Shown: positions 12,400 through 12,733, counted from the stretch's first letter. The stretch is 12,733 bases of DNA from a virus (IMGVR_UViG_2728369554_000005); one strand, 5' to 3'. Numbers and translations are program-made. Notes: generated from the sequence alone by a model not told the origin.

Positions 12400-12733
12400 T
12401 AGCGTTGTGGTGAATGCGGCTCAGCGCACGCGGGTTAAGGTTGAGGCTGACAGTCGACCTTCTGTGGATACCCACCCGTCTGGTGTGCAACCTTCGCCAG
12501 GCACCGGGAGGCACCCGGCACCACAACTTTATGCTGTGTGTAGTCCTGGCGGTACCAGTTTGTACCCTTGCTTCCGGCTGGTACCGTCCTTTTTACAAAA
12601 CAGAGAAGAGCATCACCGGACGACGGGCTCATAACCCAATCCATCCGGGCGGCTACCACCGCAGGTGTTCTTCTCTGTTTTGTGGAGAAACCAACCGACC
12701 TTGCAGGGTCGATATGATGAGGAGCAGCAAAAT
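12400..12733. other. GC-rich structured non-coding region (candidate ncRNA or recombination site), continuing past the window edge
   Basis: Three mutually overlapping short ORFs in different frames, none protein-like. Nested inverted repeats: cggtaccag (12550-12558) / ctggtaccg (12578-12586), and a 14-bp perfect pair caaaacagagaaga (12596-12609) / tcttctctgttttg (12669-12682) flanking a GC-rich 59-nt segment. Confidence 0.3.

Follow-up and report, generated by a model that had tools for sequence, protein, structure and literature searches.

Gene content and prophage context of the locus

The window analyzed here is a stretch of viral DNA of 12,733 nucleotides (IMGVR_UViG_2728369554_000005), of which the last part, 12400-12733, was studied. 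Its segment 12300-12733 was 100% identical to an E. coli prophage sequence (NZ_AP017610) and 98.8% identical to Shigella phage SfV, and 2785 of 5426 complete E. coli genomes contained matches to it. The window represents a lambdoid prophage of E. coli, of the SfV/ST64B/CPS-53 type without an N gene. In the identical annotated locus, the + strand carries, in this order, an XRE/S24 repressor, an orf33-like ORF, the leader, yfdP, yfdQ, yfdR, and further genes; approximately 600 nt between the orf33-like ORF and yfdP contain no credible gene. In SfV, the same early-left operon closes with xis and int, located about 2.4-2.5 kb downstream, past orf32-orf28. The features of the locus are as follows.

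10814-11500, + strand: cI-like XRE/S24 repressor (Pfam HTH_3 and Peptidase_S24)
11835-12131, + strand: orf33-like ORF (from the annotated identical locus)
12326-12371: 45-nt element GGATACCACCGAGCCTGAAGTGGTGAAAAGACAGGCACATAACAG (TGGTATCCT on the - strand), left edge of a variable RNA "cargo" slot and mosaic boundary
12374-12596, + strand: STnc100-family sRNA, multi-hairpin body plus terminator (Rfam RF02076)
12404-12527, + strand: sRNA body with four or five hairpins, -53.9 kcal/mol, and a 9-bp closing stem GUUGUGGUG/CACCACAAC
12548-12594, + strand: hairpin A (GGCGGUACCAG...CUGGUACCGUC) and U5 tract; the stem-loop proper spans 12548-12588, -20.5 kcal/mol
12590-12697, + strand: three-way-junction RNA ("hairpin B"), -51.0 kcal/mol, starting directly after the U-tract
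12595-12614/12664-12683, + strand: P1, 20 bp, extended to 25 bp by the U-tract (12590-12594) and GGAGA (12684-12688)
12616-12648, + strand: P2, inner branch of the junction
12624-12637, + strand: tip of P2, CGGGCUCAUAACCC, same sequence as the anticodon stem-loop of initiator tRNA-fMet
12649-12662, + strand: P3, inner branch with the loop CUACCA in the window
12684-12695, + strand: conserved GGAGAAAC(C/U)AAC 3' of the junction, of which GGAGA can pair with the terminator U-tract
12696-12711, + strand: hairpin C, CGACC-UUGCAG-GGUCG, -8.5 kcal/mol, between the junction and the yfdP Shine-Dalgarno sequence
12719-12724, + strand: Shine-Dalgarno sequence GAGGAG, 7 nt ahead of the annotated yfdP ATG
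12732-12733, + strand: first two bases of the yfdP start codon (yfdP annotation in the identical locus L001; orf32 in SfV)

An earlier note had placed 12400-12733 beyond the left operon. This location has to be corrected: the yfdP start at 12732 and the Shine-Dalgarno sequence immediately 5' of it identify the region as an operon-head leader, and 12400-12733 is the untranslated leader of the early-left (yfdP) operon, between the immunity region and yfdP. The sole promoter-like site on the + strand was found at 11695-11723 (TTGACA-17-TAGATT). Sequences repeated in the cro/cI intergenic (operator) region overlap this site, which is likely to be a repressor-controlled analogue of PL. No N homologue was detected by Pfam and no candidate for an ARM-type N protein was found; the neighboring ORFs had no Pfam match.

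Other observations concern the wider window. Masked runs of N occur at 5765-5900 and 8668-8735; the former accounts for the apparent dip in GC content at 5701-6000, and the latter interrupts a replication-protein ORF (8496-9503, - strand). In SfV (L158), isrK and C4 antisense RNAs (P1/P7-type immunity) are found at 27603-27791 in the "orf37 immunity region". Although the window is a close relative of SfV, it gave no match to isrK or C4.

Composition, folding, and reading frames of the leader

The GC content of 12400-12733 was 0.56, compared with 0.40 for 12132-12399 and 0.473 for the whole window, so that the GC-richness described in the earlier note was borne out. Both inverted repeats described there are real: the longer pair (12595-12609/12669-12683) is perfect over 15 bp instead of the 14 bp claimed, with 59 nt between its arms, and extends to 25 nt at 84%, and the 9-bp pair (12550-12558/12578-12586) is perfect and closes 19 nt. 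A further perfect 9-bp pair (12404-12412/12519-12527) encloses a multi-hairpin domain of 106 nt. Folding of the + strand gave -145.4 kcal/mol versus -114.4 ± 6.0 kcal/mol for 100 dinucleotide shuffles (z = -5.14), none of which folded as well; for the - strand, z was -3.87.

The statement that no frame encodes a protein-like ORF was inaccurate, as a frame of 106 codons runs from ATG 12414 to the end of the window, in frame with yfdP. Two further ORFs of 75 amino acids (12407-12634, + strand) and 74 amino acids (12435-12659, - strand) are present, and PGAP annotates a "frameshifted hypothetical protein" at 12407-12717. The comparative data, comprising 31 loci from other species with YfdP as anchor and 120 viral contigs collected by a motif scan, revealed conservation of none of the three ORFs. 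In 48 of 79 distinct leaders, a stop inside the junction element closes the frame of the downstream gene; the frame stays open in the other 31, of which 22 belong to a near-identical E. coli clade. Leader lengths vary by 1-2 nt (e.g. 138/140/141 and 141/142/143/146). Thus, 12400-12733 is non-coding; its + strand specifies several RNA modules in succession.

An STnc100-family sRNA in the 5' half of the leader

The structured ncRNA proposed in the earlier note was confirmed by an Infernal/Rfam scan, a check suggested in that note, which identified the 5' half of the region as an STnc100-family sRNA. The module was missed by a scan of the window at the Rfam gathering threshold and was revealed by a scan based on E-values. 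The segment 12374-12596 aligned with positions 1-206 of the 206 positions of RF02076 at 41.2 bits (E = 1.2e-7), which is below the gathering threshold of 47. The corresponding copy of a viral contig (L083, ~98% identical) scored 49.1 bits, above this threshold, and that of SfV 39.5 bits. Apart from a few non-canonical pairs, the structure line of RF02076 is satisfied throughout 12374-12596, with the closing stem, the internal hairpins, and the terminal hairpin with its U-run all aligned. No variation was seen in the blocks UGGUGAAUGCGGCUCAGCGC and CACCGGGAGGCACCCGGCACCACA among ST64B, SfV, L083, and Buttiauxella (L011), and both blocks fit the Rfam consensus. The remaining matches of the E-value scan (ftsZ-DE, MIR1094, hairpin ribozyme, DicF, and cyano-S1; E = 0.5-4.5) were attributed to chance.

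STnc100 is a prophage-borne sRNA related to PasD (bioRxiv 10.64898/2026.05.13.724894), and PasD sRNAs are Hfq-dependent on Northern blots (PMC8550237). In phage H-19B, canonical STnc100 is found with no junction RNA 3' of it; the sRNA module and the junction RNA described below are therefore independent. Taken together, the data give good support to the assignment of 12374-12596 to a slightly divergent new member of a known sRNA family at a new genomic position.

Hairpin A aligns with the terminal hairpin of the STnc100 model. Covariation is seen in its stem, and nearly every homologue examined has a T5-8 run. A simple terminator scan did not call hairpin A, which has a 19-nt loop. We infer that hairpin A and the U5 tract form the intrinsic-terminator-like 3' end of the sRNA module. 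The consensus of the RfaH ops element contains GGCGGTA, which is fitted by the string GGCGGTACCAGT in hairpin A; this candidate was rejected because positions 8, 11, and 12 fail.

In several other genera (L009, L010, L004, L024, L028, L031), hairpin A carries a conserved insert, GAGGA..(A/G)TGTTCTG, about 60 nt before the T-run. In some of these loci (L009 and L010), it can be read as a Shine-Dalgarno sequence and a mini-ORF of 4-6 codons, the stop of which abuts the 3' arm of the terminator. The insert looks like a translation-dependent attenuator and is absent from the window.

A three-way-junction RNA follows hairpin A

The RNA that starts directly after the U-tract (12590-12697) is predicted to fold into a three-way junction closed by P1. 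In an alignment of 32 non-redundant sequences, 95.3% of the pair cells were standard pairs versus 42-57% when the partners were slid, and compensatory changes were found at 12 pairs versus 5.9 ± 1.2 in shuffles (0 of 500 reached this value). The helix formed by the U-tract and GGAGA (helix 1) was paired in 97.5% of cases in the homologues. With a covariance model of the junction, the + strand reached 120.3 bits, against 34 bits for the - strand, and the helices contain many G-U pairs; the folded molecule is therefore the + sense RNA rather than DNA.

Of 29 loci anchored on YfdP, about 20 carry the junction RNA close ahead of yfdP; they represent at least 10 genera (Salmonella, Mangrovibacter, Enterobacter, Leclercia, Kosakonia, Phytobacter, Atlantibacter, Superficieibacter, Scandinavium, and Pseudocitrobacter). 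In these loci, its nucleotide identity was 72-88%, compared with 57-76% for YfdP itself. The first gene behind the junction differs and encodes either a YfdP-like protein or RdgC (PF04381). In two homologues from Providencia, the inner branches are missing, but the long helix, the T-run, and GGAG are retained. Relatives without the junction RNA also exist (L011, L019, and L007/L015; hairpin A and/or the junction are missing in L011 and L019), and the junction is consequently not essential for yfdP expression. No family in Rfam 15 matched the junction RNA. The extended motif GGCTCATAACCCAATC did not occur in the literature searched; the 13-mer GGGCTCATAACCC alone does occur, in eight papers with titles that do not concern phage leaders. 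The junction RNA is thus a well-supported conserved motif, backed by covariation and apparently undescribed. Its function may lie in processing, translation control, or an antitermination signal on read-through transcripts.

Between the junction and the yfdP Shine-Dalgarno sequence, the stem of hairpin C varies among homologues read by eye yet stays complementary, and its loop (U/G)UGCAG is conserved. A kissing interaction between the loops of P3 and hairpin C via UGCA would be possible in many homologues; it was discarded for the window, where the P3 loop is CUACCA, and for lineages with a UUCCUAAC loop. The covariance model found no second copy of the junction in the PR operon of the window or elsewhere in SfV.

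A 16-mer, TTGTGGAGAAAC(T/C)AAC, occurs at 9854-9869 (- strand) and 12680-12695 (+ strand), i.e. once per early operon, with a chance expectation of about 0.08 for such matches. The copy at 9854-9869 overlaps the end of a CII-like gene (PF06892) and provides the ribosome-binding site of ORF 9851-9513. A second junction copy in the PR operon was rejected, as nothing beyond this 16-mer at a ribosome-binding site was found there.

The apex of P2 is identical to the tRNA-fMet anticodon arm

The 14 nt at the apex of P2 are identical to the anticodon stem-loop of initiator tRNA-fMet, including three G-C pairs and the loop CUCAUAA; the tRNA-fMet sequence used for this comparison was confirmed. Of 20000 shuffles, 3 gave a 14-mer match to tRNA-fMet. 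The alignment anchored on YfdP was compiled without selection by motif; in it, the loop columns of the apex were invariant or at least 90% conserved, and the stems vary. Exceptions are several lineages with CUCAUUC or CUCAUUA loops or with only two G-C pairs, L032, which lacks CAU, and the two Providencia homologues, which lack the apical hairpin.

Searches for a larger tRNA-like structure were negative. With default settings, ARAGORN detected no whole tRNA, and relaxed thresholds yielded nothing but inconsistent noise; its mitochondrial mode detected no D-armless tRNA, and the Rfam tRNA model gave no match at E ≤ 10. A base-pairing interaction between the CAU loop and the start or Shine-Dalgarno sequence of yfdP was also rejected, as it would comprise only 3-5 bp and is, by eye, not conserved across the types of first gene.

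A late-operon form of the junction core and a variable slot in the leader

The core of the junction, GACGG(G)CUCAUAACCCAAUCC, recurs in other phages in a different scaffold, in which it is closed by a 5-7-bp GGGCCC helix followed by GCC(A/U/C). In most cases, this form directly follows a hairpin with its T-run, and a holin gene lies close behind it; where checked, the upstream gene encodes a Q antiterminator (PF03589/PF06323), and the holin is PF05106. In contig L145, the early-left and the late forms are both present on opposite strands. Because the apical hairpin is also present in the short-helix scaffold, it would need a reader of its own. A BLAST search of the phage collection gave no match for one late-type variant and only four induced E. 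coli phages for another. The late form with a GGGCCC/GGGCCC closing helix was observed in L038, L072, L098, L145, and L159-L194, and the GCC(A/U/C) that follows this helix resembles an acceptor end.

Upstream of the junction, the composition of the leader varies. The slot between the 45-nt element and GCUGUGUGUAGUC plus hairpin A is occupied by the STnc100-like body, by another RNA, by tRNA-Ile, or by nothing. The tRNA-Ile genes, with the unusual anticodon AAT, were seen in Phytobacter prophages (L021, 2722-2800; L026, 1186-1264) in the slot of the STnc100-like module. Across genera, Klebsiella phages included, the 45-nt element shows 86-97% identity. It is sometimes present twice per locus, and start codons of unrelated minus-strand ORFs lie 35-45 nt downstream of it. 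Its minus-strand sequence TGGTATCCT probably serves as an extended -10 promoter for ORF 12294-12049. A sigma-54 promoter in this element was rejected, the spacing of GGCAC-N-GC being 9 instead of 10.

The minus-strand ORF 12049-12294 encodes 81 amino acids behind a strong ribosome-binding site (AAGGAAAA-N5-ATG). It converges on ORF 11835-12131 (+ strand) and overlaps its 3' end, has no Pfam match, and is unannotated in the identical RefSeq locus and in SfV. In L007 and L015 (K-12-like CPS-53), iteron-like repeats CAGATTTTGACGGGT replace the leader about 200 nt upstream of yfdP. Homology of these two loci with the window begins only 21 nt before the yfdP ATG, which suggests a recombination breakpoint within ATGATGAGGAG, close ahead of the ribosome-binding site.

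Proposed function of the leader

The leader is composed of an STnc100/PasD-type sRNA body (12374-12547) with its terminator-like hairpin, the junction RNA, and hairpin C with the yfdP ribosome-binding site, and it appears fairly probable that these parts serve the early-left operon in the following way. Transcripts would start at the PL-like promoter (11695-11723) or at a local promoter, and most of them would end at hairpin A, yielding an Hfq-type sRNA of roughly 220 nt with a free U-tail. Polymerases reading through would make the junction RNA, which would sequester the U-tract and the following GGAG and act in cis on the read-through mRNA, ahead of the first cistron. The invariant anticodon-like hairpin would be recognized separately, by a host factor. 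The proposed promoter, an RNA end at hairpin A, and any processing are deduced here from sequence and predicted structure. Neither an N homologue nor put similarity was found that would account for the passage of polymerase through hairpin A.

Within this scheme, P1 (20-25 bp) might serve as a processing and stabilizing site for a double-strand RNase of the RNase III type, the role that we favor for this helix, though it is less likely than not. It is suggested by the near-perfect helix of at least 20 bp that persists where the inner branches are lost; cleavage of P1 would separate the yfdP message from its leader, similar to what happens in the N leader of lambda and the early region of T7. 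Against this role, it leaves the invariant loop sequence unaccounted for, and as the closing helix of the late-operon form has only 5-7 bp, RNase III cannot apply to those variants.

Alternative explanations

A coding role of the region, either as an N-terminal extension of yfdP or as a frameshifted small gene, would agree with the open frame from ATG 12414 and with the PGAP call. It is nevertheless very improbable, since it is mostly the near-identical E. coli clade that retains the long open frame, the homologous leaders contain in-frame stops (48 of 79) and differ in length by other than multiples of 3, and substitutions are compensatory in stems instead of codon-periodic; moreover, a proper Shine-Dalgarno sequence lies 7 nt before the annotated yfdP ATG. 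The frameshifted gene considered in the earlier note, although in accord with PGAP, thus fails on stops, non-triplet lengths, and base-pair covariation. The same note had suggested a retron msr/msd as one possibility, or a recombination or attachment site. Nested inverted repeats in a GC-rich non-coding stretch are the sole argument for these or for another DNA-level site (recombination hotspot, cruciform, or single-strand origin), and we consider such a site hardly credible. Neither a reverse transcriptase nor an integrase gene is adjacent: the 25 annotated genes within 6 kb on each side of the identical locus include no reverse transcriptase, and none was found anywhere in SfV. Phage genes flank the region on both sides, and the position of SfV int and xis, about 2.4-2.5 kb further downstream, makes it internal to the prophage, neither a boundary nor an att site. 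The G-U pairs and the 120 versus 34 bits of the two strands indicate a single-stranded + sense RNA, and half of the region belongs to a known sRNA family.

The two other alternatives concern the junction RNA itself. As an antitermination site of the nut or put kind, the junction RNA, alone or together with hairpin C, would bind the emerging RNA polymerase or Nus factors, and elongation would then resist downstream terminators and Rho, replacing the missing N system. We judge this unlikely, even though the element lies between the PL analogue and the first early-left gene, as nutL and putL do, in a phage without N, and though the same core also heads Q-controlled late operons. The core of rrn boxA is UGCUCUUU, and the 3' strand of P1 in most genera, UGCUCUUUU, fits it and is followed by a hairpin with a conserved loop. 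However, this string is base-paired within P1 and is absent from the copy in the window (UGUUCUUC); for the boxA of nut sites (CGCUCUUA/UGCUCUUUA), the strings TGCTCTTT and CGCTCTTA do not occur on the + strand of the window. As to a boxB with its cognate N, hairpin C has a conserved loop, but neither an N-family nor an ARM-type protein was found. Two hairpins set as a "V" on a helix recall the architecture of put RNA (PMC9378689), but sequence similarity to putL or putR is absent; putL and putR taken from HK022 had only chance 7-8-mers in common with the element. A second copy is missing from the PR operon of the window and from the rest of SfV. Finally, the junction lies downstream of hairpin A and therefore cannot suppress this terminator. 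As a further alternative, the P2 hairpin (12616-12648) might mimic the anticodon arm of initiator tRNA, acting as a decoy or sensor of a VapC-type nuclease or as a ligand of the 30S P-site or IF3 that tunes initiation at the first cistron. The identity over 14 nt suggests such a mimic, as does its conservation: no part of the element is better conserved than this hairpin, which two unrelated scaffolds retain. The tRNA-fMet anticodon stem-loop is cleaved by VapC of S. flexneri pMYSH6000 and of Salmonella LT2 (PMC4705866), and phages bearing the motif infect the same genera (Shigella and Salmonella). Altered loops or only two G-C pairs in several lineages, the loss of CAU in L032 and of the hairpin in Providencia, and the absence of the remaining tRNA parts argue against mimicry, and the probability of the match rises to about 0.01 once all tRNA species are allowed for; on balance, this role is quite improbable.

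Significance

About half of the complete E. coli genomes, the Shigella serotype-converting phages, and Salmonella ST64B carry this leader, which annotations so far leave blank or present as a broken gene. With it, the early-left leader becomes a new position for an STnc100/PasD-type sRNA and emerges as a swap-in slot for different RNAs (sRNA, tRNA, or nothing). The covariation-supported junction motif, apparently undescribed, has no counterpart in Rfam and occupies the stretch directly behind the terminator in two kinds of phage operon. Delayed-early expression past terminators in SfV/ST64B-type phages without N or put was not found addressed in the literature searched, and the leader element is an obvious place to test it. 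The tRNA-fMet-like hairpin yields a concrete and cheaply testable hypothesis; if true, a decoy or sensor role, or a cis-acting role at the P-site or with IF3 in de novo initiation of the first cistron behind its long leader, at the heads of early-left and late operons would represent a new class of phage RNA element.

Comparison with known systems

The late transcription unit of lambda has the order PR'-6S RNA-tR'. As in this unit, a short structured RNA ending at an intrinsic terminator stands at the head of a long operon, and the junction-core variants of other phages are found exactly there, between Q and holin. In contrast, the unit in the window heads the early-left operon and not the late one, and we know of no Q-like factor for it. 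The lambda N leader has the order PL-nutL-RNase III hairpin-N, and the T7 early region also contains RNase III sites. The window shares with the N leader an extended, structured stretch of untranslated RNA that separates the left promoter from the first early-left gene, and with both systems a helix (at least 20 bp in the window) just upstream of the first ribosome-binding site. It differs from the N leader in having no N gene, no boxB, and no sequence similarity, and from both in that its helix closes a three-way junction with invariant loops; cleavage by RNase III is a proposal made by analogy. Some mRNA operators, e.g. that of thrS, mimic anticodon arms, and the mRNA leader in the window likewise carries a 14-nt identity with the initiator anticodon arm. 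Unlike a tRNA, however, the element has no acceptor, D, or T architecture, and several junction homologues are altered at loop positions 37 and 38.

HK022 with putL and putR (PMC9378689) is likewise a lambdoid phage without N that has two-hairpin RNAs near the start of its early operons. The sequences are dissimilar, the window and SfV have one copy instead of two, and the element in the window follows a terminator instead of preceding it. The module in the window resembles STnc100/PasD in that it is prophage-borne and covers the full length of the STnc100 model, including the UGGUGAAU and CACCGGGAGGCACCCGGCACCA blocks and the terminal terminator, albeit with a score just under the family threshold. 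Whereas canonical copies are located in the late region, e.g. 90 nt after stx1B in H-19B, the module described here resides in an early-left leader, where it is one of several interchangeable "cargo" RNAs.
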